From an uncultured virus (IMG/VR IMGVR_UViG_3300008110_000044) (taxonomy: Duplodnaviria > Heunggongvirae > Uroviricota > Caudoviricetes), in IMG/VR virus record IMGVR_UViG_3300008110_000044: a stretch of 64,000 nt of DNA; one strand, 5' to 3'. Of this stretch, positions 25,894 to 45,018 are shown in pieces (position 1 is the stretch's first letter; every line of letters starts with the position of its first letter). The notes below the pieces were generated by a model. It ran no database searches. It had not been told where the DNA came from and saw only the letters and a program-made list of their open reading frames with translations. Position numbers and translations under genes: made by a program.

Positions 25894-25909
25894 AGTTTAT
25901 TTTTTTTAG

Positions 25910-25991: not shown

Positions 25992-25996
25992 TATAG

Positions 25997-26067: not shown

Positions 26068-26080
26068 ATAATTATTTAAG

Positions 26081-29881: not shown

Positions 29882-30172
29882 TTAAAGACTAATATCCCCC
29901 GCGTCCGTATCAGACGGACCCGCGTGATAAAGTTGAAACATAGTTAGGAATTCTTCATAGGGAGTATCAATAACATAAGTATCCCCATGGTCGGTAAATA
30001 TAGTCGTACAATTATACACCATCTCTTCCTCGTCATCCGTGGTGAGCTTACAGGCAATAACTACATCTATATGAAAAGCAAAAGACAGCCACTTACCTTT
30101 ATCAGGTATACCCATTAGATCAGCTTTCTCTATATCTATCGTGTGGCAATGGATGTTACAAGTGTGTATCAT
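29882..30172 (-). CDS. Hypothetical protein
   Basis: First gene of the minus-strand block; likely ATG at 30172. Confidence 0.55.
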   Translation of the reverse strand: MIHTCNIHCHTIDIEKADLMGIPDKGKWLSFAFHIDVVIACKLTTDDEEEMVYNCTTIFTDHGDTYVIDTPYEEFLTMFQLYHAGPSDTDAGDISL

Positions 30173-30193
30173 AGACTTTGGTTTTATGTCAGG

Positions 30194-30209
30194 GTACAAT
30201 TAAATATAC
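30194..30209 (-). promoter_or_regulatory. Candidate late promoter GTATATTTAATTGTAC
   Basis: Variant of the recurrent motif; flanking TTTAAACTCT..AAATTTA also shared with the 20346 site. Confidence 0.5.
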
Positions 30210-30267
30210 CTAAAAAGTTTAAACTCTCCAAATTTACTTATTATTACCTATTACTCTATACCCCCAT

Positions 30268-30287
30268 TTATCAACAGCTGTGCATAA
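30268..30287. promoter_or_regulatory. Inverted pair of DnaA-box-like 9-mers
   Basis: TTATCAACA-GC-TGTGCATAA, each within one mismatch of TTATCCACA, at the divergent strand switch. Confidence 0.45.
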
Positions 30288-30433
30288 CCCCCCCCGGTAC
30301 TATATATCCAGTATGCTAGAGGTAGTGATGGGTACTTCATGGGTTTGACCCCGACTAGAACTTGGCACTGTGGTACCCCTATGGGTTCACGGTTGCAGTT
30401 ACTTATTTTCTAACGCCTTAAAATCTTTATGTC

Positions 30434-30733
30434 ATGGCAAAAGTTAAAGTAAAAGTTCTGAAAGTTTCAGACAAGACCACAAACGGTAATTTCATTCACA
30501 CTCTGAAAACAGACGGTGAAACAATCAAAGTCCTTGGACAGGATATGGTTGGTAACGGATTAACTTACTATGCAGCACTTAAAGGTGCAGCAAAAGTAGG
30601 TACCGAAGAAATCGTAGACCTATCTAGGTTTGACGTTGTGGAAAGACCTTATGAAGTTACAGACGAAGAGTCTGGCGAACTTCGTACGCTCATGTTGAAA
30701 TGGCTCTATCCAAAGAGACCAAGTTCAAACTAA
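30434..30733 (+). CDS. Hypothetical early protein (beta-rich)
   Basis: 99 aa, first plus-strand gene, followed by a terminator. Confidence 0.65.
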   Translation: MAKVKVKVLKVSDKTTNGNFIHTLKTDGETIKVLGQDMVGNGLTYYAALKGAAKVGTEEIVDLSRFDVVERPYEVTDEESGELRTLMLKWLYPKRPSSN

Positions 30734-30736
30734 TTA

Positions 30737-30764
30737 AAGGCGGGACGCAAGTCCCCCTTTTTTA
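30737..30764 (+). terminator. Intrinsic terminator
   Basis: GGGAC-GCAA-GTCCC followed by a T-run. Confidence 0.8.
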
Positions 30765-30832
30765 CTTTCCCTTTTGATTGTCAATCAGTCAATCAGCATT
30801 CTTAATCATTTATAAACCAAACATCCCTAATC

Positions 30833-30982
30833 ATGAAAAGATCTAAACGCCTCATGTTCCCATCTTGGGACTTCTTTAAAGCCTGGTATCTATCTATGAA
30901 AGACAGATTCTCCAAGCTTACTCTTAATCTTGTCCGCTATATCAGTGGCTCACACCACGTAAGAGTAGAGATAAGCTATTAA
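30833..30982 (+). CDS. Small hypothetical protein (49 aa)
   Basis: MKRSKRLMFPSWDFFKAWYLSMKDRF...; A/C-rich leader. Confidence 0.45.
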   Translation: MKRSKRLMFPSWDFFKAWYLSMKDRFSKLTLNLVRYISGSHHVRVEISY

Positions 30983-31248
30983 GAGCGTTATAACTCGTTG
31001 ATAATCAGGTGTGTCTGTGTGGTAGTTCAACAGACACCCTTTTCTTATCCTTTTAAGTACTCTGTATTCCAAAGTACTTTTGCCGCGGATGAGATAGCTA
31101 TAACTCATTATCCCTGGAGAATAGGCTATGTAGGAACCACAGTTAACGTTCATATTGTCTGATGTATCAGAAACGTTCTGCCTCTTACCTATTCTTACGG
31201 ATATACAGACAGGGGGAGCAGTCTATAAAAGGGCTCCCACCAATAATA

Positions 31249-31719
31249 CTTTCTCCGAGTAATACACTATCGGTTGCAAACGGTGTGTATCATAAACCTA
31301 CTGTCTCTTTGAAGACAGCTTGATTAACCACCTAGTACGTGGAGGGGCTTGGAGAGAGTATTCAATGACATGCATGAGTTCCTATGTCTAATAGTCAATT
31401 AGGAGATGAAAACGTCCACCTACACTATTAGCACCTCTTGAAGGTTAGGAACATGCATGTTTTATACTTGTCGGGTGTATATAACCGTCTTGTGTGTACC
31501 AATTGTACATCTCTTTCCGAGCTTCCTGGTTGTTAGGCTATAAAGAGTATTGTAACTAGGTTTCTGTTGGGCCACAGATACAGCCCACAGACAGTCGTCT
31601 TTATGACGGTTGCAAACGGTAGACATAGAGATGACTTCTGTTATCCTCTATGATGGAGAGATGTCTGGACCGCAAGGTCAGATCGGACAGCCTCAATGAT
31701 ATCATAGACCAAGGTATAA
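31249..31719 (+). ncRNA. Candidate large structured ncRNA or ncRNA cluster
   Basis: Three contiguous multi-branch domains in an ~890-nt ORF-free region; repeated loop CGGTTGCAAACGGT. Confidence 0.55.
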
Positions 31720-31872
31720 GATTTTTCTTATTATCTTATTATGTACCATTATGTATCCATTAGCCAAGCTGTATAGCTGGCAGTTTTCAACCCAAGCCTT
31801 GAGCAAGCTGGGCCATTTTACATAAACTACAAGCTCTCTTTACTAATTATTAACCACCTAAATACTCAAAAC

Positions 31873-32061
31873 ATGAAGTATCTAATCAGCATTTTGTTAC
31901 TCTCCATAGCCTTCATACCCTTTTTGCTATGGTTCTCTCTTGTTTATTTATGGACCTTTGATCCCACGCCAGTCAGACAACTTTGTCATGATTTTAGTGA
32001 GACCATAGAGTCTAACTACCGCAAAGCATTTCGTAGAAAACCTAAACGTAGAACCTTTTAA
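31873..32061 (+). CDS. Small membrane protein
   Basis: N-terminal TM helix, basic tail. Confidence 0.6.
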   Translation: MKYLISILLLSIAFIPFLLWFSLVYLWTFDPTPVRQLCHDFSETIESNYRKAFRRKPKRRTF

Positions 32062-32071
32062 ATCATCCTGT

Positions 32072-32275
32072 ATGAAAGCAACAAAAACAATGTTGGCCTT
32101 TGTAGTCACAAGTCTTATTACCTGGCTTTTTCTTGGCTCTCTCTTTTACTTATGCTCTGGCGATCTTTCCTTCCGAGAGGCTTGCACTCACGGTGGCGTA
32201 GCTATGCTTATGCTACTATTTGGATGGATACCTGCCGTAATCGTAAGTATGGACGTAGACGAGAAGATTGCTTAA
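32072..32275 (+). CDS. Small two-TM membrane protein
   Basis: Two hydrophobic segments. Confidence 0.6.
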   Translation: MKATKTMLAFVVTSLITWLFLGSLFYLCSGDLSFREACTHGGVAMLMLLFGWIPAVIVSMDVDEKIA

Positions 32276-32278
32276 CAA

Positions 32279-32356
32279 GTATCACCAGAGATACTACATA
32301 ACATAGTTCTATATAGTTATTATATTATACTATGTTATAGATATCACTGGTGATAC
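32279..32356. repeat. 78-bp imperfect inverted repeat with AT-rich core
   Basis: GTATCACCAG...ATAACATAGT / ACTATGTTAT...CTGGTGATAC. Confidence 0.75.
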
Positions 32357-32374
32357 CTCTTACACTATCATATT

Positions 32375-32986
32375 ATGAAAAAGATATATTTCACAGCTGT
32401 TTTACTGGTATCTGTACTGATACTTATTAGCGTCCAAGCAATGAATATAACCCAAACAATCTATATTCAACCGCTTGGCAAGGTTAAATTCGAGTATCTA
32501 ACAGCAGTAAAACGTTCATTAGAGTCTTTTTATAAGGTAAAATGTGTAATCATGAGTCAAATAGATCCAACCGAAGATGTTATATCTAAACCTAGAAGAC
32601 GTATTGATGCCTCTATGGCACTTAATAAGTACAATTCTAGCAATCACACCATCATTGTGACTGAACGAGATATATCACACTTTAAATCAGTCTCTCAACC
32701 AGACTGGGGCATCTTTGGCCTTGCTACTAAACCTGGTAAAATAGCAATAGTATCAAGTTATAGATTACATAACCCTGATAAAAAACTCATAATCACTAGA
32801 TTACAAAAGATAGCTATCCACGAACTTGGTCATAATCTTGGTCTTGCTCACTGTAATAAAGATATCAAATGCTTGATGTCAGCAGCTGGCGGGACAATAA
32901 AACAAGTAGATCAAGAAGATATATACTTCTGTACATCTTGTAAAAGAAACCTCATTCATTCAACCTTATTAAATCTTGAAAGATGA
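32375..32986 (+). CDS. Archaemetzincin-like (M54) zinc metalloprotease with signal/TM N-terminus
   Basis: HELGHNLGLAHC...CLM...FCTSC: HExxHxxGxxHC, Met-turn and Cys4 site. Confidence 0.85.
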   Translation: MKKIYFTAVLLVSVLILISVQAMNITQTIYIQPLGKVKFEYLTAVKRSLESFYKVKCVIMSQIDPTEDVISKPRRRIDASMALNKYNSSNHTIIVTERDISHFKSVSQPDWGIFGLATKPGKIAIVSSYRLHNPDKKLIITRLQKIAIHELGHNLGLAHCNKDIKCLMSAAGGTIKQVDQEDIYFCTSCKRNLIHSTLLNLER

Positions 32987-33147
32987 AATCATCAAAAGAT
33001 CTCACGCCTTCACAAGTAATACTAATCATGATTATATTCATGAGTATACTGTCTGGGCTTACCAGTTGTTCTTCTACCAGAAACGGCTATGGCTGTAAAG
33101 GTAAAGAATCATGGGAAAAACTAGTTAGAAGGATAAATAGTCCTTAA
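32983..33147 (+). CDS. Small putative lipoprotein (54 aa)
   Basis: Hydrophobic stretch then LTSC lipobox; ATGA overlap with the protease stop. Confidence 0.55.
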   Translation: MKSSKDLTPSQVILIMIIFMSILSGLTSCSSTRNGYGCKGKESWEKLVRRINSP

Positions 33148-33176
33148 ACAGGGTGTTTAATGGTTAAGTAAAGCAA

Positions 33177-33207
33177 GCCCGCTGACGTAACGTTGGCGGG
33201 TTTTTTT
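33177..33207 (+). terminator. Intrinsic terminator
   Basis: CCCGCTGACG-TAA-CGTTGGCGGG followed by T7. Confidence 0.85.
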
Positions 33208-33239
33208 CTCTATTTTTTTATCTTTAAATATAATTCCAC

Positions 33240-33386
33240 ATGGAAAAAACTCTAATCATGGGTAAAAGACATACCCTAAAATTTATTAAGAACACTATAT
33301 TCTTTGGTTTCAGTTATGATAAACCAAAGCTATACTTAGTATTCTTCTGCTTTATAATAGAATTAGACTTTCGTAAAAGCAAATAA
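33240..33386 (+). CDS. Small hypothetical protein (48 aa)
   Basis: MEKTLIMGKRHTLKFIKNTIFFGFSYDK... Confidence 0.45.
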   Translation: MEKTLIMGKRHTLKFIKNTIFFGFSYDKPKLYLVFFCFIIELDFRKSK

Positions 33387-33420
33387 GTTTTAATATTTCT
33401 AACCACCTAAATTCATTAAC

Positions 33421-33831
33421 GTGAAAACATTTCAGATTTCTCTAAATGGTATGGACCCTAGTAAGGTGTACATCCAACAAAAACGCTATGCAAACGGAAG
33501 AGTTCGTTTAGATCTATTAGATCTTATGGATGGTTTTCCTCACAGTATAGCAACAGTAAACTTACCAGATGTACTTCTGGAAGACAATGAGATTCTTGTA
33601 AAAGACTACTCAGAAAATGAAGGCATGCTTGATTTCCTTACAGCAAACAATATTGTAATCCCAACAGATAAGGGAGTACATTCAGGTTTTGTATGGATAC
33701 CAGTATGTAAATTAAATCCTGAATCTGAGTGGGGATATGATCAAAGAGACTATCTTGATTATGTTATAGAAAAACATAACAAAGAACAAGAAGGTCTTGA
33801 CGCAGTCATGTCTCAGTATGATCCGTCTTAA
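33421..33831 (+). CDS. Hypothetical protein (DUF4313-like)
   Basis: ATVNLPD...VKDYSENEGMLDFL...SGFV. Confidence 0.6.
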   Translation: MKTFQISLNGMDPSKVYIQQKRYANGRVRLDLLDLMDGFPHSIATVNLPDVLLEDNEILVKDYSENEGMLDFLTANNIVIPTDKGVHSGFVWIPVCKLNPESEWGYDQRDYLDYVIEKHNKEQEGLDAVMSQYDPS

Positions 33832-33843
33832 AATCATAATTAT

Positions 33844-34005
33844 ATGATACTAAGAATCATCTATTGGATATTAGACATTAAAAAGTCTGAGCCTTTCCAA
33901 TTAAAAGAACGTAAACATGAACCTCCTGCACCAGGCTTTTATGAATGGTGCAAAGAGTTCAAAGTAGGAATCTTACATAATAAGAATTCTTATTTCCCGG
34001 ATTAA
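33844..34005 (+). CDS. Small hypothetical protein (53 aa)
   Basis: MILRIIYW...FYEWCKEFKVG. Confidence 0.45.
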   Translation: MILRIIYWILDIKKSEPFQLKERKHEPPAPGFYEWCKEFKVGILHNKNSYFPD

Positions 34006-34107
34006 AATCCCCCAAGAAAGAGGTGTTGGACCTATTCTACTTCACAGAACGGGCAGTTGATGGTAAGCTCTAAACCATTACTTTTTTACTTAACTAATCT
34101 TAATTCT

Positions 34108-34710
34108 ATGGGTAAGTTTACACAACATGCCTCACAAGAAAAGCAAAAAACCAGACAGTATATTCTGGAACAGATTCCAAAGTTAAAAAAGCGTAAGCCA
34201 CGTCTTCTTACTTTACCAGCAGATAATTTCATCTTTGAAAAAATGGTACTCAAACGTTATCCTAATGCAATCATTGATTGTATGGAGATAGACCGTGTGT
34301 TATACCGTCAAGTAAAAGATAATCTTTCCTGTAAAGTAAACTATGAGTATGGTGATATCTTTGATAAGCTACAGGCAAATCCAAACACGTATGATGTTAT
34401 ATGGTTAGACCTTTGCGGCAACCTATCTACTACAAACCTGTATAGTCTTATATCAGTAGCACAGACCTCTATTAAGAAGAACTGCATATTTGCATTTACT
34501 TTATCCTCACATCGTGAGCAAAGAGGACAGATCTTTACAGAACTGTACAATTGTACAGATATTGATCAGTTCAGATATAAAGTATTTCCAGATATGCTTA
34601 CAAAAATGGCCCGTATTTTTAATCCAAAGTTCAGTCTTCAAAAAATTCTGAGGTATCAGAACGAAGGTTGTCCTATTCCTATGTCTCTTTATTTATTTAC
34701 CAATTCTTAA
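34108..34710 (+). CDS. Class I SAM-dependent methyltransferase-like protein
   Basis: IDCMEID, YGDIF and YDVIWLDLCG Rossmann-type motifs. Confidence 0.6.
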   Translation: MGKFTQHASQEKQKTRQYILEQIPKLKKRKPRLLTLPADNFIFEKMVLKRYPNAIIDCMEIDRVLYRQVKDNLSCKVNYEYGDIFDKLQANPNTYDVIWLDLCGNLSTTNLYSLISVAQTSIKKNCIFAFTLSSHREQRGQIFTELYNCTDIDQFRYKVFPDMLTKMARIFNPKFSLQKILRYQNEGCPIPMSLYLFTNS

Positions 34711-34720
34711 AAAATCATTT

Positions 34721-35086
34721 ATGAAATTTCCAGTTGCACAAGTACGCGAAAACTTTATCAAAGATTGTATGTCAGGTAACTTTAAAACCCAAGAGCTTAT
34801 TAAGAAATATAAGTTCCCAAATGCTCAGGATTACTATCTGACAACTAGCATGTTAAGAAAGAAAGGATTACTTCCTAAATCTAAATTGTCTGAATCTATT
34901 AAAAAGTATTGGGCTAAGAAAAAAGCTGAAACACAGGCTCCTATACAGACTAAGGTTACAAAAGATCAACCTTTATCTGATTTTAGAACTGTATACTTTA
35001 AAGACTTTACTGTTCAGATCCATAAGAAAGCTATGGCAAGACTTGTTGTAGATCACAACAATAACTTGCATATCTTGAACAGTTAA
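34721..35086 (+). CDS. Basic hypothetical protein (possible HTH)
   Basis: 121 aa, Lys-rich. Confidence 0.55.
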   Translation: MKFPVAQVRENFIKDCMSGNFKTQELIKKYKFPNAQDYYLTTSMLRKKGLLPKSKLSESIKKYWAKKKAETQAPIQTKVTKDQPLSDFRTVYFKDFTVQIHKKAMARLVVDHNNNLHILNS

Positions 35087-35088
35087 AC

Positions 35089-35268
35089 TCGGTGAAGCTA
35101 GCGGCAGCTAGTATGGGCATGCTCATGCTCTAATCTTGAAAACAGGAATTGATCAACCATGAGCTACTACAGATGATATGGCTGTCGTGAGGGGGGCTTA
35201 CGAAAAAGACTGCTGCTTTGATTAAGTTCATATTAGTCAGTTTGTCAGAGTAGTAAATAAAACACCGA
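35089..35268 (+). ncRNA. Candidate structured ncRNA
   Basis: TCGGTG/CACCGA closing stem plus several internal hairpins; terminator-like hairpin at 35311-35338. Confidence 0.45.
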
Positions 35269-35356
35269 CACTAGCAGCTTAGCTGACTAGAATTAGGAAA
35301 CACCAACCACAATCAGTACGTCAAGCTGATTATTTTTTAACCTTAATTCATTAAAC

Positions 35357-35929
35357 ATGAAAAGTATTTGCTTAAACCACGATGGAGAAAACGCTGTTGA
35401 GATGTTTGATCTCACAAGAGAAGACGGCCATCGTATCAAAAACCTTATAACCTTTGAAACACTAAAAGGTTATTTATTATCTGATGAGTTATATACAGAT
35501 GATACAGCTCCAAGAATTCTAACAACCAAATCAGGTTGTATAGAAAGATGCTTAGATCGTTTGTATACAGATTCTGAAAAAGCCTTTTTCTTTATGATAT
35601 TTATTAATACTCATGAAGGCATTGGTAAAGCTTATTCTATATATAAGCATTTAGATGAACACATTGAAAGAATGACACAGAGCGATGATTATAATAATCT
35701 TGATGACGGTATTGATGGTCAACTTAAAAAGCTTATTGTCAAGAAGATAAGTCAAGATATAAAAAAAAAGTTTGCTCTTATTGGTGAAGTTCTTGAATGT
35801 ATAAAGAACAACAATTATAACTATGAGCTCTTTATGGATGAATTCAGCGAAAAGTATGATGATTTAACTGATGCTATTGCTGAAAATTTAACAGAGCTCA
35901 GAAGAAGAATGAATAATGATGAGGATTAG
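35357..35929 (+). CDS. Hypothetical protein
   Basis: 190-aa helical acidic ORF. Confidence 0.65.
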   Translation: MKSICLNHDGENAVEMFDLTREDGHRIKNLITFETLKGYLLSDELYTDDTAPRILTTKSGCIERCLDRLYTDSEKAFFFMIFINTHEGIGKAYSIYKHLDEHIERMTQSDDYNNLDDGIDGQLKKLIVKKISQDIKKKFALIGEVLECIKNNNYNYELFMDEFSEKYDDLTDAIAENLTELRRRMNNDED

Positions 35930-35940
35930 GGTTGGTAAAG

Positions 35941-35982
35941 TACCAGGAAGTCCCAGTAATGGGGCTTTCTTGGTATATTTTT
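35941..35982 (+). terminator. Intrinsic terminator
   Basis: TACCAGGAAGTCCCA-GTAA-TGGGGCTTTCTTGGTA followed by a T-run. Confidence 0.7.
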
Positions 35983-36011
35983 GTAGAACATAAAATAATT
36001 ACATAAATTTG
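35980..36011 (+). promoter_or_regulatory. Bacteroidota primary-sigma promoter
   Basis: TTTG (35980-83), N20, TAAATTTG (36004-11): matches the -33/-7 consensus. Confidence 0.7.
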
Positions 36012-36019
36012 TTCACATT

Positions 36020-36307
36020 ATGACAGTCCTTAATCAAAGATTAAACGGTGGGTTTGGTCAGTGCACAACTACAGTAATGAGAGATCCGGCTATTAGTCTG
36101 AGAGATAAAGCGTTGTATGCATATCTGTCAACATTTGCAGATAGTAGAAATAATCAGCTACGGGTCAGTGTGTATAAAATGGCAGCAGAATTAAACGTGA
36201 GTAAGATTACTGTAATAAGATCATTAAAAGCTCTGGAAGATAGTAATATTATAAAGAGAATGTCAATTGGAAAAGGTAAGTCAAAAGTTACTATTCTTTT
36301 AAAATAA
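36020..36307 (+). CDS. Winged-helix (HTH_36-like) DNA-binding protein
   Basis: RDPAISLRDKALYAYL...MAAELNVSKITVIRSLKALED. Confidence 0.75.
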   Translation: MTVLNQRLNGGFGQCTTTVMRDPAISLRDKALYAYLSTFADSRNNQLRVSVYKMAAELNVSKITVIRSLKALEDSNIIKRMSIGKGKSKVTILLK

Positions 36308-36308
36308 C

Positions 36309-36663
36309 TGACTGATTGTAATAGACTTATGTAAGTCGTAACGCCTTCGGGTAGCATTAACCTGTTATGATAGTCACAAACAAAGAAGGTCTGATCTTAG
36401 GAGCTATGTAGCGTATTAAATATAATTACCAGGACGAGTATCGGCAAAAGGTTCGTTTATACTTAGTAGTACGACATGAAGATAGAGCTCCGTCAAACGA
36501 ACAGTATATCAACTGAGTAGCAGGATCAAGGACAGCGTGGACCCATAAGAACTATTGAACCCTGAGGTAGACCTTTTTTTAACTAATTCAGTCTAGCTAA
36601 TAGACTTAAACTAGATGCCGGCATACCGTATCTGTGGCGTCACAGCAGATGGGATCTGGTATG
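36309..36663 (+). ncRNA. Candidate structured ncRNA(s) with pseudoknot upstream of tmRNA
   Basis: Domains 36309-36376 (UUCG hairpin), 36382-36579 (pseudoknot) and 36620-36664. Confidence 0.5.
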
Positions 36664-36696
36664 CATCACAAGTATACCAACTTTTTAAACTTTTAT

Positions 36697-36852
36697 ATGA
36701 AATTAAAACTGAGTAGTCACTTTGATACTTATTACATTCTGCCAGGATTACGTATCTATTATGATACTTTTTATGAAGGAGGACTATCACGTTTTTCCTT
36801 AGAAGTATTCTGGCTTAAATGGAGTATAGATCTGGTCTTTATAGACCGATAA
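36697..36852 (+). CDS. Small hypothetical protein
   Basis: MKLKLSSHFDTYYILPG...FWLKWSIDL. Confidence 0.5.
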   Translation: MKLKLSSHFDTYYILPGLRIYYDTFYEGGLSRFSLEVFWLKWSIDLVFIDR

Positions 36853-36858
36853 GTATAT

Positions 36859-37539
36859 GGGGGTGCCTGGTTTTGACAGACATGTAGAGAGTTAGTAAAC
36901 ATGCGGACCTTTGGTAGAAGTGGTCCTTAAATAAACTGCAAACGATAAACGGCAAGACACAGTCTGACCGTGTAGCAGAAGGAGAAGCTATCTTGGCTTC
37001 TATCTTCGGTGAAGTAGCAGTAGCTGCCTAACCCTACGGGGGATCTATCCCTGGCAACAGAAAATAGTAAACTGACATGCCTTAAGGTTGGAACCCTGGA
37101 TAGGCCCAGGAGAAAGGAGCTATAAACAGAGTTAGCCTTCGCATTAAGAACTACGTTCCCAAAGCGTAAATCTTTCCAGTTGCTCCCGACATGTCAACGA
37201 ATAGACAGAGTCCTATGATGGTAGTTTACTACCGGATACTTATGGCGTGCTGATATTCAAAACCGCTCCGCACTGGAAGTTAGAATAGTTATAAAAGGTT
37301 CTAACGAAGGGAGGATAAAAAGCAGCCTAATGATATTAAGAGCTATGCTCCCAAAATCACGAACCATCCTCCAGTACTCCCGAGCAACAACTAAAACTGA
37401 AGTTGTAAATAGACAGTTAACTCTACGGTGCAGGCTGTCACAATTCTTCAAAGATTTGTGACATATCAGTACTAAGCATGTGATACGTTTTACTTTCTTG
37501 TCTCTTGTTTGGACGCGGGTTCGACTCCCGCCACCTCCA
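36859..37539 (+). ncRNA. ssrA: tmRNA, unusually large (~681 nt)
   Basis: 5' GGGGGTG...TTTTGAC; 3' CTAAGCATGT...GGAC-GCGGG-TTCGACT-CCCGC-CACCTCC-A with G3.U70; PK1 GGACC/GGTCC; tag 36951-37031 ends VAVAA*. Confidence 0.93.
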
Positions 37540-37569
37540 CTGCCTCATATGGCAAGCAAGCAATCGTTA

Positions 37570-37601
37570 ACCCTGGCGTTTCTACGCTGGGGGTATTTTT
37601 T
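37570..37601 (+). terminator. Terminator after tmRNA
   Basis: ACCCTGGCGT-TTCT-ACGCTGGGGT followed by ATTTTTT. Confidence 0.8.
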
Positions 37602-37614
37602 AAATTAGTAGCTT

Positions 37615-37809
37615 ATGAATATATGCCCTATTTGTAATCAACAGTATACACCTGTAGATGTTCATGGACACGTACAATGTAGTGTCTGTAAGACAAACAT
37701 ACAGCCATGTTGTCAAGGAGACACTTGTAACATGACTTATTTAGAAGACAAAGGACCACAGTATGACTCTGCTGGGTTCCAAGAAACAGACAGAGATGTC
37801 ACAGAATAA
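37615..37809 (+). CDS. Small Zn-finger protein
   Basis: CPIC...HGHVQCSVC...PCC. Confidence 0.6.
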   Translation: MNICPICNQQYTPVDVHGHVQCSVCKTNIQPCCQGDTCNMTYLEDKGPQYDSAGFQETDRDVTE

Positions 37810-38089
37810 TCACCTTTTAATCTGTAGCTGTCATAGTACAGAACATCAAATGGTATTTTACAAATCTGATGGTACTGATTGGTATCCTCCAGAAGTTTAT
37901 GTGCATGTACACCTAGTAAAAAGATCATTCTGGTACCGTTTAAAGTATGGACTAAAATATATCTTTGGACATACATCTAAATACGGTGCATGGGATGAGT
38001 TTATTATGGATAACTCACATATAAATGATTTAGAGAACATCATTAAACATCTAAAAGATGAAGAAGTACCAACAGCTCCCAATCCCTAA
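37796..38089 (+). CDS. Hypothetical protein
   Basis: ICSCHSTEH...FWYRLKYGLKYIFG. Confidence 0.6.
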   Translation: MSQNNHLLICSCHSTEHQMVFYKSDGTDWYPPEVYVHVHLVKRSFWYRLKYGLKYIFGHTSKYGAWDEFIMDNSHINDLENIIKHLKDEEVPTAPNP

Positions 38090-38642
38090 GGATTCAGCAT
38101 GGAGCAGAAACAAATGGCTCAGATATGTGCCAACAAGTATTAAACAGTTCTTTCAAGGACTGAGAAACATTCTTAGATGGATGCCTACAATCTATAGAGA
38201 TAAGCACTGGGATCATTCTTTTCTTAACGATATACTGCAAAAGAAGTTAGAGTTCATGAGAGAAGAACTTGTTACAGCTAACCGTTTTGTTGGTGTAGAA
38301 AAAGTAAATAAAGATATAACCCTTGCTCTTAATCTATTAGAACGTATAAAACATGACTATTATGCCCTAGAAATGTATGAGTACATCAAAAACTCTCATG
38401 AGTTTGTACCAGCAGACGTAACGGGTGATTACTTTGTCATGCAAGACACAATCCTAGAAGATAATCTAGAGGAATACTTAGCTAAATATAAACATACAGC
38501 TAAGAAACTTCGTAAAAAGTATAAACTAAAACTTTATCAAACAGAAAAGCTAGCATTTAGAGTATCTGATTATAATCAGCAAAAGTGCGAGCGTATATTC
38601 TGGAAACTATTAAACTATAAACTTACCCATTGGTGGGACTAA
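38058..38642 (+). CDS. Hypothetical protein
   Basis: 194-aa ORF with WMPTIYRDKHWD and C-terminal WWD. Confidence 0.65.
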   Translation: MKKYQQLPIPKDSAWSRNKWLRYVPTSIKQFFQGLRNILRWMPTIYRDKHWDHSFLNDILQKKLEFMREELVTANRFVGVEKVNKDITLALNLLERIKHDYYALEMYEYIKNSHEFVPADVTGDYFVMQDTILEDNLEEYLAKYKHTAKKLRKKYKLKLYQTEKLAFRVSDYNQQKCERIFWKLLNYKLTHWWD

Positions 38643-38652
38643 AATTAAAAGT

Positions 38653-39192
38653 ATGATGACAGAAGAACGTTATAATGATATCAAAGAAGGATACATTAAT
38701 AACATTAAAAGATTTATTGTTGAGGTAGGCGACATCTTTCCTCACGTAACTGTATTTGGTCTACATAAAGATGACCAGACTAAAAATGCTATCATTCATA
38801 TTCCTATTGATGATGAATTTATGAAGTCTGAAGAACGTAAAGAAACTTTTATCAATGATGTTGTACCTGAAGTAGCAAGAAAGATAAAAGAGCAGTTCAT
38901 ACCTGAAGGTGTAGCATGGACTTCTGAAGCATGGTTAAGAGAATCACCTGTTGATAAAGGTATACTCAATGACTGGAAGGAACTGCCAGTAAAAAAAGAA
39001 GTTCTCTTCATAAATATGGAGTTTGAGCACAAAAAAGAGATGATTGTATATGAGATCAAGAGACTTGGTAAGCAGGTTACTGAAGATGGAGAAATTGTAG
39101 ACCAAGTAGAACTTATAGAACAAGACTTCTCTAAAGGAGAATCATCTGGCGGTAGACTTACCGGCCTATACGAAAAGTTTATAAATGCCTAA
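38653..39192 (+). CDS. Hypothetical protein
   Basis: 179 aa with SEAW motif. Confidence 0.65.
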   Translation: MMTEERYNDIKEGYINNIKRFIVEVGDIFPHVTVFGLHKDDQTKNAIIHIPIDDEFMKSEERKETFINDVVPEVARKIKEQFIPEGVAWTSEAWLRESPVDKGILNDWKELPVKKEVLFINMEFEHKKEMIVYEIKRLGKQVTEDGEIVDQVELIEQDFSKGESSGGRLTGLYEKFINA

Positions 39193-39225
39193 GGCATATT
39201 TTTTAATCCCTTAATAAAAAAAACC

Positions 39226-39567
39226 ATGTTTAAACCGAAACTGGAAGACAAGAAGCTACAGCAGATCAATAAAGATTTGTTAGATGGTAGCTCTCTTAAA
39301 ATTGTAGCTGAAAAAAATGACGTTAGTTATCAGCACGTATGTTATTATCGTAAAAAGCTTGTTAAAGCTGGTGTATTAACACCATTATATGAGAAAAGAA
39401 AGACAAGTAGAAAAAAAACAACTAACTTTAGCGTTAGAAAAACCTTGAAAAAAGTAACTGTTCCTACACCTCACACATTTAAAGTGGTTGTAAATGGTAC
39501 AGAAGTAAACATTTCAGGTGCAAAGTACGTTCACGTACATCCTGACAAACTTGATGTTAAATATTAA
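39226..39567 (+). CDS. HTH-containing basic protein
   Basis: GSSLKIVAEKNDVSYQHVCYYRKKL HTH pattern. Confidence 0.6.
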   Translation: MFKPKLEDKKLQQINKDLLDGSSLKIVAEKNDVSYQHVCYYRKKLVKAGVLTPLYEKRKTSRKKTTNFSVRKTLKKVTVPTPHTFKVVVNGTEVNISGAKYVHVHPDKLDVKY

Positions 39568-39571
39568 TACT

Positions 39572-39748
39572 ATGTTTTTAAATTGGTTAAAAAAGCTTTT
39601 ATCTTCTAAAAAGATTGAAGAGCTAGAACGAGAGAACAGTGAGTTAAAAGAGAAATTGGTAGAAAGGCAAGAGCATATAAACAAAACCAATGCTTACTGG
39701 AAGAAGAAAATGAACGATATCAATCGTACAAAGAAAGCAGAAAACTAG
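39572..39748 (+). CDS. Small coiled-coil protein
   Basis: MFLNWLKKLL...IEELERENSELKEKL. Confidence 0.55.
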   Translation: MFLNWLKKLLSSKKIEELERENSELKEKLVERQEHINKTNAYWKKKMNDINRTKKAEN

Positions 39749-39765
39749 TTATAGCTCTATTATCC
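39749..39765 (+). repeat. 17-bp motif TTATAGCTCTATTATCC, copy 2
   Basis: Exact match to 20415-20431 (-); followed by a TTTG-N19-TAGCTTTA promoter-like site. Confidence 0.7.
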
Positions 39766-39836
39766 GGAAATCTTGGTCAGAACTATTTGAAAATCAGTAC
39801 ATATAGGTTAGCTTTATACTATATAAAGCAAGCCCT

Positions 39837-40100
39837 ATGTTATACCAGTTACCAAATGGTAAGGTAATTGAGATAAGCACAGAGCAGTACGTAGAAATGT
39901 CTGATGAAGAATTTGAGTATCTTATTGCATATAATTACGGAGACACTGTGGAAGATCCATGGTTTGGTTCCGTTCTTAGCAAAAGAGAACCCATTGTCTT
40001 TACAGAAGAAGTACCTGATGTACTACCTGACTTAACTAATATACCTGATGAAGACAAGATTACTTATTCCGATATAGATTATAAACCGGAAGACGAATAA
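39837..40100 (+). CDS. Acidic hypothetical protein
   Basis: MLYQLPNGKVIEIS...DPWFGS. Confidence 0.65.
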   Translation: MLYQLPNGKVIEISTEQYVEMSDEEFEYLIAYNYGDTVEDPWFGSVLSKREPIVFTEEVPDVLPDLTNIPDEDKITYSDIDYKPEDE

Positions 40101-40137
40101 TTATTGCGTCCCCCTTACTTTGAAACAATACACTTAT

Positions 40138-40171
40138 CCCCTGAGATTTCTATCTCGGGGGTTTTTTATTT
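40138..40171 (+). terminator. Intrinsic terminator
   Basis: CCCCTGAGAT-TTCT-ATCTCGGGGG followed by a T-run. Confidence 0.75.
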
Positions 40172-40190
40172 ACATTTTAAACTTTTACTT

Positions 40191-40658
40191 ATGGGTAAAG
40201 TAGTAGTAAGTGCCGATAAGAACGGCAACATTGTCGGTGTATCCGAGAATAATCCTGAGTACGGTTACGTACGAGTAGAACAAACTGGTAGTTTTATCAA
40301 TGATCAAGGTTGGTTACGTATTAGCAGACGTTCTGCATTGATCAAAGGTCTTGTTAAAGATCTTATTGAAACTAATTTCACAGAGGGTCAAGAACTTCCT
40401 GGCAGAATTGTGGTAATAGAGTCCTTAGAAGCTTTTAACACAGAGAACCCAGATAGAGATTTAAAGATTGCTGGTGACACAGGAGTAGTATGTAGAATAG
40501 ATGATCAACCTATTTATCGTCAAAGCTTCTATACTACAAATGGTTCTATGCAAGACATACTTATCACTCATACAAATAGTGAAGAAATACGTGAAGTACA
40601 AGCTGCTCAAAAAGCAGTTTCCTCATTAAGTATGAGAAGAAAAGAAGCTGAATTATAA
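40191..40658 (+). CDS. Hypothetical protein
   Basis: MGKVVV...NPEYGYVRVEQ...KIAGDTGVVC...QPIYR; start moved past the terminator. Confidence 0.65.
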   Translation: MGKVVVSADKNGNIVGVSENNPEYGYVRVEQTGSFINDQGWLRISRRSALIKGLVKDLIETNFTEGQELPGRIVVIESLEAFNTENPDRDLKIAGDTGVVCRIDDQPIYRQSFYTTNGSMQDILITHTNSEEIREVQAAQKAVSSLSMRRKEAEL

Positions 40659-40683
40659 GTCACTTATATTTAGTTTATAGTTA

Positions 40684-40713
40684 AACCCAGTGCTGAAAAG
40701 CCTGGGTTTTTTT
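40684..40713 (+). terminator. Intrinsic terminator
   Basis: AACCCAG...CTGGGTT followed by a T-run. Confidence 0.75.
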
Positions 40714-40748
40714 ACTTTATTTACTTATCTTTATAAACCGGTAACACC

Positions 40749-41270
40749 ATGCCAAACAACCCTAACAAAACCATTACTGCAAACTCTAAAGGTATAGTTA
40801 TATCTTTCAGAGACGAGTGTAAGCCTAGATATATAGCTTATAAATCCCCTGCTGTAGAAAAAATACAGCTTTACGGGAAGGTAAGGTATCAAGTGCTTGA
40901 CAAACCTGAATTCAACAGGATACAGCAGAAGTTATATACTGAAGCTATTTATGGTCTTAATGTCTATGATAAAGAACAGCTATCTAAACTACCTACAAAG
41001 GAAACGTCTAGAATATTCTCTTTAAATAAGAGAGTACAGCACTTCTTAAATAGATGGAAACAAGAAATCATAGAGCTTGAAGTAAACAATTTCTTATCAT
41101 CCTTATTTCCCAACTCTAAAGTAGTCAAACACATGTGTGCTATAAACGGTTATAACCGAGCATATACAGACAGACATACTTTTAAAGAACTTGGTTTATC
41201 CCAAGACAAAATTGCAACCAAGCTTGTAGAAGCTGGATTATTACCTAAAAACTTTTTTCAGTTAACTTAA
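40749..41270 (+). CDS. Hypothetical protein
   Basis: 173-aa ORF. Confidence 0.6.
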   Translation: MPNNPNKTITANSKGIVISFRDECKPRYIAYKSPAVEKIQLYGKVRYQVLDKPEFNRIQQKLYTEAIYGLNVYDKEQLSKLPTKETSRIFSLNKRVQHFLNRWKQEIIELEVNNFLSSLFPNSKVVKHMCAINGYNRAYTDRHTFKELGLSQDKIATKLVEAGLLPKNFFQLT

Positions 41271-41274
41271 AATT

Positions 41275-41496
41275 ATGAAACACGTATTCGTTACAGATAG
41301 TAATACTCAACTTATCCTTGTACCTGAATCTGAAACAGACAGATTATTATTAGACAGTGTTATGTCATCAGGTGCATCAACAGAAATAGAATGGATCAGA
41401 CAACCTGTTAGTGTTCTTGGCATAAGCGTCAAAGATAGTATTGTTATTCGTAAGAAAACATATAAACCAATAACTGAAGATGCAGAACAAGCTTAA
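41275..41496 (+). CDS. Hypothetical protein
   Basis: 73-aa ORF in operon. Confidence 0.5.
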   Translation: MKHVFVTDSNTQLILVPESETDRLLLDSVMSSGASTEIEWIRQPVSVLGISVKDSIVIRKKTYKPITEDAEQA

Positions 41497-41863
41497 AACA
41501 TGTAACGGCTGCAATCAGCCCAAGCACATTTGGAAGTCTCACGGTAAAGAAAAATATTGTAAGGATTGCTGGTATAGTATGGAGCCACCCAAGAAAATCT
41601 CACCTGTCTCTAAAAAGATGCGTGAGACAATGGATGAATACTCTAAAAGACGTGCTGCATATCTTATAATACATCCTAACTGTGAAGCTAAACTCATGGG
41701 TTGTTCTACTAAAGCCACAGATATACATCATAAAGCAGGAAGAGGAGAAAATCATTTAAAGATATCTACTTGGATTGCTGTATGTAGACAGTGTCATCAA
41801 TGGATAGAAGAAAACCCAACTGAGGCTAAAGAACTTGGTTATTCTGAAACTAGAATAAAATAA
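41480..41863 (+). CDS. HNH-like Zn-finger nuclease
   Basis: CxxC...CxxC, then ATDIHHKAGR...AVCRQCHQWI. Confidence 0.7.
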   Translation: MQNKLKTCNGCNQPKHIWKSHGKEKYCKDCWYSMEPPKKISPVSKKMRETMDEYSKRRAAYLIIHPNCEAKLMGCSTKATDIHHKAGRGENHLKISTWIAVCRQCHQWIEENPTEAKELGYSETRIK

Positions 41864-41867
41864 TAAT

Positions 41868-42746
41868 ATGCAAAATAAAAAAATTAAAAAGAATCCTATA
41901 CTTAGCATTCTAAGTGGGCCTATGAATTTTACTTGTTTTAAAGAAGCACCTTATATAGCTTTTAAAAATCCAGATGGAACTTTGAGTAAAGAAAACACTC
42001 TTGTATGGAAGCTAGAAGATATCAAAAAGTTTCTTAAAGACAACATGAGTGAATTTCGTAAAAACATTTTTGCTCCAGCTGATTCATTTATACAAGCTGT
42101 TAAAATGTCCCAACACTCAATAGCACATGCTTTTAATAAAGAACCTGATTATATGTTTGCTAATTTAAAACATACAGCTGGTATAATGATTTCAGATGAT
42201 ATAACTATATTCTTTAAAATTAATAAAGAAGAATATTTATTTACAGCAGTTTGTTTTGTGGATGATATATTAGCCTCAGGTTTTTATGAAGTAGCTCTTC
42301 ATAAAACATCTTTAGATAAGTCTAGATATAGAGCCTACGTACCTATACAGCTATCACAATCAAATAAAGAAGATGTTGAAACCATTCAACAAATGAGAGC
42401 TAAAATTGATTCTACATTTATAATAACAGCGTTTAGGAACTATGCCGATCATGAACTTAAAATAGTAGCTGGTAAAAGTACAAGTAAACTTAATAATATT
42501 ACTTATAATAATCTAAATAAACAAAGTATTCAAATTATTGATTCTAGCTGGTATACTACTATTACAAGAACAGAAGGCTTTTTAGTAAAAGGACATCTTC
42601 GCATGCAACCCTGTGGTCCAAATATGTCTGAGCGTAAACTTATTTATATAGATAGCTTTGAAAAACATGGGTATACAAGAAAAGCAAAAATGCTTCCCCG
42701 AGATAATGCTTCTATTTCTACTATAACAGAAACTTTATATTCATAA
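41868..42746 (+). CDS. Hypothetical protein
   Basis: C-terminal VKGHLRMQPCG...YIDSFEKHGY motif. Confidence 0.65.
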   Translation: MQNKKIKKNPILSILSGPMNFTCFKEAPYIAFKNPDGTLSKENTLVWKLEDIKKFLKDNMSEFRKNIFAPADSFIQAVKMSQHSIAHAFNKEPDYMFANLKHTAGIMISDDITIFFKINKEEYLFTAVCFVDDILASGFYEVALHKTSLDKSRYRAYVPIQLSQSNKEDVETIQQMRAKIDSTFIITAFRNYADHELKIVAGKSTSKLNNITYNNLNKQSIQIIDSSWYTTITRTEGFLVKGHLRMQPCGPNMSERKLIYIDSFEKHGYTRKAKMLPRDNASISTITETLYS

Positions 42747-42755
42747 AACAAGATT

Positions 42756-43235
42756 ATGCACACAAAACTTATTGGTCACGTAGGTGTAGACTCAGGTCAA
42801 CTTATGTTATGTGATCCATGCTATATTGACTCAGAATGGAAAGATGAAGACTTTGAAGATGTCCGTGTATACAGACATAAAACTACTGGGGATATTCTTC
42901 AGTACAGAGTTGACTTTCCTCATTATGAAGCAGTTATACCAGAATATGGTAAAACTATGAATGAACTAAATGCTACAGGTGAGTGGATAATGGAAACTGA
43001 TTATCATACTCCTGTTAACTCATTTAGTTATAATGCTTGTGCTAAAGCAACATTATCAAAACAAGGCTACGGTCAGTTAAACTATGCTCTTGGTCATCCT
43101 GGCGTAGGTGTAGCTTTTAGTACTGCTCATGGTGATGGTATATACCCTGTATATGCTACATATGATAAAAATGGTCTATTATTAAAAGTAGAAGTCCATC
43201 TAGGTTCATCCTTAGATGATGACTCTGAATCTTAA
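42756..43235 (+). CDS. Hypothetical protein (DUF4241-like)
   Basis: VGVDSGQLMLCDP...STAHGDGIYPVYA. Confidence 0.6.
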   Translation: MHTKLIGHVGVDSGQLMLCDPCYIDSEWKDEDFEDVRVYRHKTTGDILQYRVDFPHYEAVIPEYGKTMNELNATGEWIMETDYHTPVNSFSYNACAKATLSKQGYGQLNYALGHPGVGVAFSTAHGDGIYPVYATYDKNGLLLKVEVHLGSSLDDDSES

Positions 43236-43240
43236 TTAGT

Positions 43241-44377
43241 ATGAATAAAAGAGAAGAAATCCAGCAACAAGCCCTGGATGTAGCTAAGAAGTACAAACGT
43301 TGTGGTTTAGGTATTTCTATGGGTGTTGGTAAAACTCTCATAGGATTAAGATATCTTGAAGATCTACAACAACAAAACATGCATAAGCTTAATGTGTTAG
43401 TCGTAGCACCCAAGCTTAGCATATTTGATACATGGAAAGATGATGCTGCAAAGTTTGATATCTCTGACAAAGTCATGGATAAAATAACTTATACAACTTA
43501 TCTCTCTTTAAACAAATACAACCCACACAGCTATGATGTAGTTGTGCTGGATGAATGCCACAGTCTTCTTGACTCACATGAAGTCTTTCTTACAAGTTAT
43601 CAGGGTAAAATATTAGGTCTTACAGGTACTCCTCCTAGATATACAAACACAGAGAAAGGTAAAATAGTAATGAAATACTGTCCTATCCTGTATAAGTATA
43701 TTACAGATGACGCTATTGATGATGATATTCTTAATGATTATAGAATCATAGTACACAAAATGCCACTATCTAAAGACAATACTATTCCAGTGTCTCTTAA
43801 AAATAGTAACTTCTACACATCAGAACAAAAGAGTTATGCATATTGGTCTAAGAGAATTATGGATGCACAAACAAAAAAACAGGAGCAAATAGCCTCTGTT
43901 ATGAGAATGCGGGTGCTAATGGATTTCAAGACAAAAGAAGAATATGCAAAATATCTAGTAAAAGAAATAGAAGACAAGTGTATAGTATTCTGTAATACCC
44001 AAGCTCAAGCAGATAGAATATGTAAGTATAGTGTGCACTCAGAGAATCCTGATGCAGAACATAACTTAGATATGTTTAAACGTGATAAGATTACTGAGCT
44101 ATCATGTGTACTACAACTTAATGAAGGTGTAAACATACCAAATTTAAGAGCCGGTATTATCATGCATGCATATGGTAATGAGCGTAAGTCATCTCAAAGA
44201 ATAGGAAGACTATTAAGACTAAATCCTGATGATACAGCATATGTACATATTCTTTGTTACAAAGATACTGTAGATGAGAGATGGGTAGCTGAGGCATTAA
44301 AGGATCTAGATCCAAGAAAAATTAAGTATCACGATGTAAATATGTCAACGTATGATGAATCTTCACTTTACAGGTAA
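43241..44377 (+). CDS. Superfamily 2 DNA helicase
   Basis: MGVGKT, LDECH, LTGTP, EGVNIP and QRIGRLLR motifs. Confidence 0.9.
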   Translation: MNKREEIQQQALDVAKKYKRCGLGISMGVGKTLIGLRYLEDLQQQNMHKLNVLVVAPKLSIFDTWKDDAAKFDISDKVMDKITYTTYLSLNKYNPHSYDVVVLDECHSLLDSHEVFLTSYQGKILGLTGTPPRYTNTEKGKIVMKYCPILYKYITDDAIDDDILNDYRIIVHKMPLSKDNTIPVSLKNSNFYTSEQKSYAYWSKRIMDAQTKKQEQIASVMRMRVLMDFKTKEEYAKYLVKEIEDKCIVFCNTQAQADRICKYSVHSENPDAEHNLDMFKRDKITELSCVLQLNEGVNIPNLRAGIIMHAYGNERKSSQRIGRLLRLNPDDTAYVHILCYKDTVDERWVAEALKDLDPRKIKYHDVNMSTYDESSLYR

Positions 44378-44750
44378 ATATATTAAACGTAATGGTAGGT
44401 TAGAGTTTTCTACACTAGCTGCATCAAAACAGTTTGAAATGTTTGTATCATATATTCCTGATGGACAAATAGTAGAAGTATTCTATGAGCAACAGCATGA
44501 TGATGGTACATTACCTCAGCTTGCTAAGCTGCACGTAATTATAAAGCAACTGGCTATGCATACTGGTGAGACTGTAGAAAACATGAAACTACTTGTTAAA
44601 GACAAAGCAGGTTTATGTATAGCAAGAGAAGTATCTGGTAAAGAATACTTCTTAGCTAAAAGTTTTGCAGAGTGCTCCAAAGATGAGTTAAGTCTTGCTA
44701 TACAAGCAGCAATGGAAATAGGTCAGGATATTAACTTTCCTGTGTGGTAG
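44352..44750 (+). CDS. NinB-like protein
   Basis: QLAKLH...GET...MK...KSFAECSKDELS pattern. Confidence 0.45.
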   Translation: MMNLHFTGKYIKRNGRLEFSTLAASKQFEMFVSYIPDGQIVEVFYEQQHDDGTLPQLAKLHVIIKQLAMHTGETVENMKLLVKDKAGLCIAREVSGKEYFLAKSFAECSKDELSLAIQAAMEIGQDINFPVW

Positions 44751-45018
44751 GAGCATCATCAATGTTTTCCTCTACAACTAACCCTTTTTCTTGTGCGGTT
44801 GTTTCAATAGCAGTTATCATTAGTGATAAGAATGCTACGTGTTCATACCAGTCTTCTGTAAATTCCTTCTTCATTATTTTTTCCTGAGCTTCTAATATCT
44901 CTTCTTCTGTTTTATCAGCAAGAATAAAGAGTAGTAGTTTTTGGAAGTTAATAAGAGTATTACCACCAATAGTAATTGGGAATACAGAATCTCTTTTTAT
45001 AGACTTATAGACTGGCAT
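44731..45018 (-). CDS. Hypothetical protein (counter-oriented)
   Basis: 95-aa ORF with TAAATTTG just upstream on the minus strand. Confidence 0.55.
   Translation of the reverse strand: MPVYKSIKRDSVFPITIGGNTLINFQKLLLFILADKTEEEILEAQEKIMKKEFTEDWYEHVAFLSLMITAIETTAQEKGLVVEENIDDAPTTQES

Follow-up and report, generated by a model that had tools for sequence, protein, structure and literature searches.

Published lengths of transfer-messenger RNA (tmRNA) are 230-400 nucleotides (nt) in the cited section of PMC3968760 and 250-425 nt, with ~350 nt as typical, in that of PMC1168896, which also describes a pseudoknot 4 (pk4) doubled as tandem pseudoknots in some cyanobacteria. According to PMC3968760, exchanging the pseudoknots PK2-PK4 for other elements or for one another causes no serious functional loss, and the pseudoknot ring wraps around the outside of the 30S beak. 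The tmRNA database described in PMC11915505 holds 97,179 sequences in three gene forms, 79 of them from phages; the sections cited here name a permuted gene of 1152 bp and an intron-containing gene of 1116 bp as the longest, place all known introns in the T-loop and give 10 codons as the most frequent tag length. A survey with ARAGORN reported tmRNA in 402 of 18,146 phages (PMC9004378). Here, we analyze a tmRNA gene of 684 nt on a stretch of 64,000 nt, hereafter the window, from an uncultured virus (IMG/VR record IMGVR_UViG_3300008110_000044; Caudoviricetes). Combining covariance-model matches, comparison with relatives and RNA from lakes, we consider it likely that this gene encodes an expressed and probably functional standard tmRNA of a freshwater tailed phage, the arc of which has been enlarged by modules resembling tolerated expansion segments.

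The tmRNA gene and its RNA

The RF00023 covariance model (Infernal) matches 36859-37542 on the plus strand from end to end (model span 1-374) with 64.3 bits (E 9.1e-23; the gathering score is 47). Together with the sequence itself, this full-length match bears out an earlier sequence-only reading of the locus as a one-piece phage tmRNA with an intact tRNA-like domain, helix P2 and PK1, and all helices named in that reading were located within one or two bases of the positions given there. In the acceptor stem, G36861:T37536 corresponds to the G3:U70 alanine identity pair. The two halves of P2 lie on one transcript in the standard order, and the permuted tmRNA model reaches only 21.5 and 19.3 bits on 36700-37700 (cut-off 47). 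CCA is unencoded, with CTG at the equivalent position; many bacterial genes likewise lack an encoded CCA. A 21-nt core of PK1 has the same letters in the six viral loci found by a pattern scan. The second stem of PK2 differs on both sides among relatives (CTAT/ATAG, GTAAC/GTTAC, GCTAT/ATAGC, GTCAT/ATGAC, TGCTC/GAGCA, GTTCC/GGAAC and others), a test in which a lone 4-bp match is frequent by chance and the weight lies in the co-variation at one homologous place. Of the two tools proposed as a check on the identification, only Infernal with RF00023 recovered the gene: ARAGORN reported no tmRNA in the window and called three tRNAs (Leu, Met, Asp; 25909-26175), a miss that is a limit of the tool and no evidence of absence.

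The tag frame (GGC AAG ACA ... GCT GCC TAA) opens with a resume codon that aligns to GCA in the model, and the resume codons of the family of related tmRNAs described below are all GNN (Gly, Ala, Val, Asp). The string RVAEG(E/D)AILASIF is kept in 42 of 42 distinct relatives; its core, RVAEG(E/D)AILAS, was set by the search pattern and is therefore uninformative on conservation. The nine codons past the core are free of the pattern; when the 36 sequences (out of 42) that agree in length are compared, 33, 25 and 77 changes fall on codon positions 1, 2 and 3, respectively, with the peptide keeping IF..E.A(V/I)AA and the tags ending in AVAA, AIAA or ALAA. Because third codon positions vary so much more than the first two, the tag appears to be constrained at the peptide level and to evolve like a translated frame. 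The tag pattern found no match in 185,579 species genomes, and thus identified no host or donor.

The same 684-nt form is present in a 65-kb IMG/VR record of the same phage (G001; the same 1400 bases at 99.93% identity) and in a metagenome contig (L231; 684 nt at 99.85% identity). Words of 31 letters from the tmRNA occur in 20 metatranscriptome runs of nine freshwater studies, and in four of four runs from four studies (region 36400-38000) RNA contigs free of mismatches extend over the tmRNA and each of its module borders (Table 1). On either side, no contig of the four runs covers the neighbouring phage genes (36400-36831 and 37642-38000). Since the flanks are uncovered, the signal derives from RNA and not from carried-over DNA, and the added sequence is part of this RNA; the 684-nt tmRNA is thus expressed in lakes with its modules. 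Upstream of the gene, ~178 nt (36680-36858) separate a terminator-like hairpin (36657-36679) from the tmRNA, with a small open reading frame (ORF) ending at 36852; this stretch is uncovered by the RNA contigs of the four runs. In the relative L260, the homologous hairpin lies just 5 nt 5' of the tmRNA.

Modules of the expanded arc and their family

All added length sits in the arc that runs from PK2 to the 3' strand of P2, which in other tmRNAs houses PK3 and PK4 and which, by published work, can be exchanged with tagging preserved. The distance from the tag stop (37029-31) to GCATGT (37476) measures 444 nt, next to the ~445 nt of the sequence-only reading, and the extra RNA domains postulated there take the form of ~440 nt of non-coding, modular, stem-closed RNA, which we divide into modules A to D (Table 1). 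In module A, helix H3 crosses H1' and would thus form a pseudoknot, and H4 encloses a conserved 21-nt loop (37143-63). The module is common to L232/L258/L260/L262, L218 and L207 at 92-98% identity; among these variants an H4 pair reads C:G, T:A or T:G, and the closing stem is retained in the minimum free energy (MFE) structure. The 3' end of module B, GTGCTGATAT (37247-56), pairs with ATATCAGTAC (37463-72), a helix that is also in the MFE structure of the 444-nt arc. The arc of the window corresponds to that of an L229-type RNA (474 nt) in which module A is inserted after PK2 and module C replaces a short linker.

Module C is found in this phage only, and several lines of evidence relate it to module A: (i) in a global alignment the two modules score at z 6.0, a value reached by 0 of 1000 shuffles, (ii) 18 of the 21 letters of the loop stretch are equal at an offset of 192 nt in modules that are otherwise ~60% alike, (iii) a covariance model built from the four A variants alone matches 37264-37388 end to end with 27.2 bits (E 6.5e-5), the runner-up within 15 kb having 12.2 bits, and (iv) a hand-made helix model (outer stem, H1', H2, H3, H4) fits all A variants and, with other letters, also C, in which H4 reads TGAT/ATCA and the helix order of the 5' part is reproduced in 4 of 20000 shuffles. 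Judged by these comparisons, one putatively pseudoknotted module of ~110-125 nt was duplicated to give A and C, which have diverged. The cross-domain complements described in the sequence-only reading are present, including GTTGCTC/GAGCAAC, a candidate long-range pair; with A and C derived from one module, the 3' strand of an A helix finds its complement in the 5' strand of the corresponding C helix, so that TTTCCAGT/ACTGGAAG follows from the duplication.

Relative to shuffled sequences, the gain in folding energy is modest: the z-score is -2.2 in the case of the 444-nt arc and -2.5 in that of the complete RNA, and modules folded singly range from -1.4 to -2.4. The proposal of a structured expansion is therefore upheld by comparative evidence for stem-closed modules, on which the case for module structure rests, and less so by thermodynamics. 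A permissive Rfam scan of 36700-37700 (E<=10) gave seven matches with tmRNA alone above its cut-off, and neither a group I intron (RF00028) nor any other family in the expansion; as a control, the same library detects RF00028 at 74-86 bits in L207, L224, L226 and L236. As the sequence-only reading held, the expansion contains no credible ORF: none is common to relatives, and two ORFs of 43 and 64 amino acids lie mostly in the phage-specific module C and extend into D. The loop pattern of module A has three viral matches, all three inside tmRNA genes; its eight matches in bacterial genomes extend in no case beyond 21-26 nt and are attributed to chance. Module A is absent from 30 of 30 other family loci examined, and its covariance model finds nothing besides modules A and C in window positions 30000-45000. 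A mobile element or repeat was considered and rejected, with no module copies outside the tmRNA gene in these scans.

Table 1. Positions of the tmRNA parts, arc modules, matching RNA contigs, phage genes and introns of relatives (window coordinates unless a locus is named)
Feature	Position	Strand	Remarks
Standard (one-piece) tmRNA gene	36859..37542	+	RF00023; 684 nt counted to the CCA-equivalent position
Acceptor stem, 5' strand GGGGGTG	36859..36865	+	Pairs with CACCTCC 37532-37538; sequence, Infernal alignment
P2, outer part	36877-82 / 37506-11	+	CAGACA / TGTTTG; sequence
P2, inner part	36899-904 / 37476-81	+	ACATGC / GCATGT; sequence
PK1	36905..36940	+	GGACC 36905-09 / GGTCC 36922-26 and next loop; upstream of resume codon; Infernal alignment
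Tag frame	36951..37031	+	Resume codon GGC, 26 codons (GKTQSDRVAEGEAILASIFGEVAVAA), stop TAA
PK2	37032..37072	+	Common to whole family; second stem covaries
Module A (126 nt)	37073..37198	+	Closing stem TGACATG 37073-79 / CATGTCA 37190-96
Module A, inner helices			H1' 37086-92/37175-81; H2 37095-110; H3 37116-20/37182-86; H4 37140-42/37164-66
Module B	37199..37263	+	Hairpin GGTAG/CTACC 37220-33; common to L229/L249, L218, L232, L200-L203
Module C	37264..37387	+	Window and L231 only; putative diverged second copy of A, offset 192 nt
Module D	37388..37465	+	Family-wide CTACGGTGCAG 37423-33; hairpin 37436-63; 95% to L229/L249; fold z -2.4
P2 3' strand, T-arm (37515-31), acceptor 3' strand, discriminator A	37476..37539	+	Infernal alignment
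Intrinsic terminator-like hairpin and T-run	37571..37602	+	30 nt 3' of tmRNA
RNA contigs, run X1	36866-37041, 37012-37228, 37199-37627		0 mismatches
RNA contigs, run X2	36870-37216, 37199-37482		0 mismatches
RNA contigs, run X5	36867-37062, 37074-37480		0 mismatches
RNA contig, run X8	37033-37487		0 mismatches
Major head protein	17371-18990	-	
Portal	20432-23170	-	
Large terminase	23454-25673	-	
Group I intron of relative	L207:1646-1862		
Group I intron of relative	L224:341-555		
Group I intron of relative	L226:299-515	-	
Group I intron of relative	L236:1516-1757		

The family of relatives was collected by pattern scans for PK1 and for the tag region, which gave six and seven viral loci, and from 45 metagenome loci. 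Starting from the window and 53 loci, 40 complete genes were obtained with a script, cmscan added six (L215, L225, L228, L234, L245 and L248, of which L245 has 44.2 bits and is under the cut-off), and a later scan added L260 and L262; L227, L240, L254 and L258 are cut by contig ends. The resulting 48 complete rows represent 42 distinct sequences of 351-684 nt, with lengths determined by cmscan of the loci. The RNA that the sequence-only reading called giant is the longest of them and also the end of a graded series: 12 of the 42 sequences have at least 500 nt and five at least 643 nt, the longest forms being those of the window and L231 (684 nt), L234 (659 nt) and two variants of 643 nt (L232 with L262; L260). 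Common to the family are positions 1 to ~210 and ~608 to 684 of the window RNA, and the stretch in the middle is a mosaic that measures 83 nt in forms of 358 nt and 397 nt in the window; many relatives have an arc of only ~110 nt. The RNA of L234 (positions 1194-1852 of a 135.6-kb metagenome contig) has the PK2 and tag core of the family and lacks all of modules A-D, so that large size arose more than once, independently and with other cassettes. Cassettes at the same sites have putative closing stems of their own, as read by eye: GTAAGG/CCTTAC in L200, GAACAG/CTGTTC in L246 and GTCTTATA/TATAAGAC in L234. Modules are thus shuffled among relatives, with other cassettes taking the same sites.

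Four relatives have a group I intron (RF00028) inside the tmRNA gene (Table 1). In the three with readable junctions (L207, L224 and L236) it starts directly after the second T of the T-loop. Over at least 765 nt of L207 and at least 1100 nt of L236 no 3' exon was found, which means that these introns are long; a homing endonuclease gene may lie inside.

Beyond this family, 50,697 phage records were queried by BLAST with the tmRNA, and the sole match, from an Alcaligenes phage, is confined to 35 nt at the 3' end; in these records no cultured relative has a tmRNA of the 684-nt type. A wider viral sample, collected with the 29-nt 3' end of the window tmRNA, comprised at least 118 stretches, 80 of them with full flanks, and is a partial sample and no census. 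Among the matches listed, the end-matching viral tmRNAs have 246-483 nt, besides short forms of 82 and 132 nt, so that in this sample the exceptional length proposed in the sequence-only reading stands. Infernal placed 16 of 44 of these records above the cut-off (82-483 nt); in the others all pieces stayed below it, none exceeding 382 nt and many of them split. In G040, G037, G056 and G055 (L028, L019, L066 and L063), for example, a whole-model piece (1-374) adjoins a piece at model positions 84-140. Such an arrangement is what permuted two-piece tmRNA genes would be expected to show.

The phage and the possible role of the modules

The window represents a tailed phage with a G+C content of ~36% that carries tail fibre and replication genes besides those listed in Table 1. 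The closest cultured terminases, at ~25% identity, are those of crAss-like, Flavobacterium and Cellulophaga phages, and terminase relatives occur on more than 599 viral contigs. An RF00023 profile search of 25 records with terminase relatives found a tmRNA in one (G011, terminase 88% identical) and was negative for 23. The near-complete records G002 and G003 (L160 and L162; 96% and 92% complete; terminase 78%) gave no tmRNA match, which suggests that the gene is patchy in this phage group; this search is weak on long forms, and as on G001 it gave only an 86-nt place with 30 bits, its negatives weigh less. In line with the absence of smpB noted in the sequence-only reading, SmpB (PF01668) was not found in G001 or in three of three relatives (88%, 97% and 100% complete). 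The host is probably a Bacteroidota, as indicated by the terminase relatives, by the tags of some relatives, which have Gly at the start or YALAA at the end, and by the intron site of the relatives: in the tmRNA database the subsite after the second T of the T-loop comes only from the class Bacteroidia, as stated in PMC11915505. Elsewhere in the window, the tRNA-Asp (GTC) called by ARAGORN at 26080-26175 (minus strand) is unreported by the Rfam tRNA model at gathering score; with 96 nt it is far over the normal length of tRNA-Asp and may reflect an insertion or a miscall.

Combining the conserved parts of the RNA with the comparative data, we suggest the following scheme: (i) the tmRNA would be excised as a tRNA would be, by host RNase P, and receive its CCA from the host enzyme, (ii) it would be charged with alanine by the host alanyl-tRNA synthetase (AlaRS), given that G3:U70 is present, (iii) host SmpB and EF-Tu would deliver it to stalled ribosomes, SmpB being supplied by the host since the phage is without it, and (iv) stalled chains would receive Ala and the 26-residue tag ending in AVAA. 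As the comparisons show, the arc has grown by the stem-closed modules A-D, with duplication of one putatively pseudoknotted module giving rise to A and C; the modules would project outward from the ring of pseudoknots. In rRNA, tolerated sites at the surface carry stem-closed insertions, known as expansion segments and intervening sequences, that vary between close relatives. By analogy to expansion segments, the modules of the phage tmRNA would be tolerated and retained in the RNA, where they could perhaps aid folding or stability, and they can be explained without invoking a separate function.

Several points weigh against this reading. The RNA contigs are blind to RNA ends, to amounts and to minor processed forms. 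The folding energies of the modules (z -1.4 to -2.5) amount to weak thermodynamic support, and the A/C helix model is tentative, having been fitted by eye to five distinct sequences of which four are more than 92% alike. PK3 and PK4 of the shorter relatives are unrecognisable in the window, where the CAGGTGGTGG motif is absent and modules A-D are found instead, so that the arc may fold quite differently. Finally, the conserved 21-nt loop is unexplained by a passive spacer and hints at a specific contact.

This loop, the strongest hint at a separate role of the duplicated module, leads to the alternative that survives best. The modules could be functional RNA domains, such as protein or ligand binders or a decoy for a host factor, that ride on a stable and abundant tmRNA scaffold and are swapped as cassettes; the tmRNA would then be a carrier of exchangeable accessory RNA cassettes, and the A/C module with its loop a new motif binding a host or phage factor. 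The near-identity of the loop in two otherwise diverged copies speaks for this idea, as do the retention of both copies after duplication, the conservation of modules at 92-98% among tmRNAs that differ more elsewhere, and the presence of differing cassettes at one site, each with a closing stem of its own as judged by eye. Yet no Rfam family matches the modules, the A-type loop occurs only in tmRNA genes apart from chance matches, the 30 other family loci do without an A-type module, and many relatives manage with a short arc. On balance, we regard this alternative as unlikely; the remodelling of host trans-translation that the sequence-only reading proposed is, like a function of the modules, a hypothesis. 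If the alternative were true, candidates for the factor would include ribosomal proteins, nucleases, protease adaptors and defence components, the abundance and stability of a rescue RNA would be harnessed for a second job in infection, and a duplicated module that binds something would constitute a new RNA motif, so far confined to phages.

A second alternative is that the expansion is removed or cut after transcription, either as an unrecognised intron or as an intervening sequence processed by RNase, to leave a tmRNA of normal size or in two pieces; the sequence-only reading had likewise considered an embedded or excised RNA. Intervening sequences of rRNA are stem-closed, and so are the modules; four relatives have group I introns in this very gene. 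The authors of the tmRNA database state that introns outside the T-loop were possibly missed (PMC11915505). However, the introns of the family lie in the T-loop and not in the arc, no intron model matches 36700-37700 at E<=10, and the RNA contigs of four studies run from core through modules to core, unbroken and without mismatch across every module boundary. Two joints were seen in the RNA, neither of which removes modules with exact sequence. In run X1, 112 other letters stand in place of 37042-37198 (157 nt), which is a replacement and not a splice; in run X5, 37072-37464 are skipped in a contig with five mismatches. Both joints fit co-occurring relatives with other or no modules and not splicing of the 684-nt RNA, and as the X1 contig links 37012-37041 to 37199-37228 via the 112 letters, a relative that has another cassette at the site of module A is expressed alongside. 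Removal or cutting of the expansion is accordingly improbable in our estimate, and excision as originally envisaged is not borne out.

Even less probable is that the gene is a decaying, unused relic with a middle part free to gather junk. The high variability of the arc, the unrecognisable PK3 and PK4, and a score of 64 bits, below that of shorter relatives (up to 90 bits), would be in line with decay; on the other hand, the tRNA-like domain, PK1, PK2 and the tag are conserved, the changes in the tag are synonymous in pattern, the RNA is found in lake RNA in which the neighbouring genes are not, and three assemblies contain the gene in its 684-nt form. That several tmRNA genes were misassembled or fused into a chimera is conceivable in that relatives carrying other modules are present in the same samples and could be mixed by assemblers; this explanation can be set aside with near certainty, as three independent assemblies agree at 99.9% and RNA contigs with 0 mismatches from four studies overlap across all module borders.

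Comparison with known tmRNAs

The tmRNA ranks with the most closely studied small RNAs, and an expressed one with an arc enlarged by probably tolerated modules is of interest beyond this phage. As a natural form, the 684-nt RNA shows how much added RNA the pseudoknot arc carries and provides a natural test of the purpose of the arc, and the series from 351 to 684 nt with swappable modules lends itself to structure probing, cryo-EM and complementation. Given that ARAGORN misses the long form and that the genome search gave an 86-nt piece, surveys of phage tmRNAs are probably biased against long forms; ARAGORN was the tool of the survey in PMC9004378. Our literature searches on unusually long tmRNAs returned nothing relevant, and for the database of PMC11915505 the comparison covers the longest permuted and intron-containing genes.

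Compared with a standard tmRNA (SsrA, RF00023, e.g. that of E. coli), the phage RNA shares the tRNA-like domain with G3:U70, P2, PK1, PK2 and a hydrophobic tag end in AA. It differs in that ~400 nt of modules replace PK3/PK4 in an RNA of 684 nt, in that the phage has no SmpB, and in that its tag has 26 codons against the most frequent 10 given in PMC11915505. The one-chain tmRNAs of cyanobacteria with tandem pk4a/pk4b resemble it in an arc altered through a doubled element; in the description of PMC1168896, however, two small pseudoknots stand for one in an RNA of normal size, whereas the phage RNA has a module of ~125 nt twice, two further modules and a doubled length. Intron-form tmRNA genes (as described in PMC11915505) are likewise far longer than 500 bp, and the relatives L207, L224, L226 and L236 have that form; in the window, by contrast, the added sequence belongs to the arc, is recognised by no intron model and remains part of the RNA. 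The OM43 phage Melnitz, as presented in the cited part of PMC9004378, also has a tmRNA without a phage SmpB and with an extra RNA element, a glutamine riboswitch, attached, but its tmRNA is of the permuted two-piece form and the extra element lies outside the mature RNA.

Expansion segments of rRNA are likewise stem-closed and variable, and the phage case differs in concerning another RNA, in which at least one module is conserved and, by its sequence, duplicated. In total, the 684-nt gene is real and unusual and not categorically new: among the phage tmRNAs of this family, with their exchangeable and duplicated arc modules, it is the largest.

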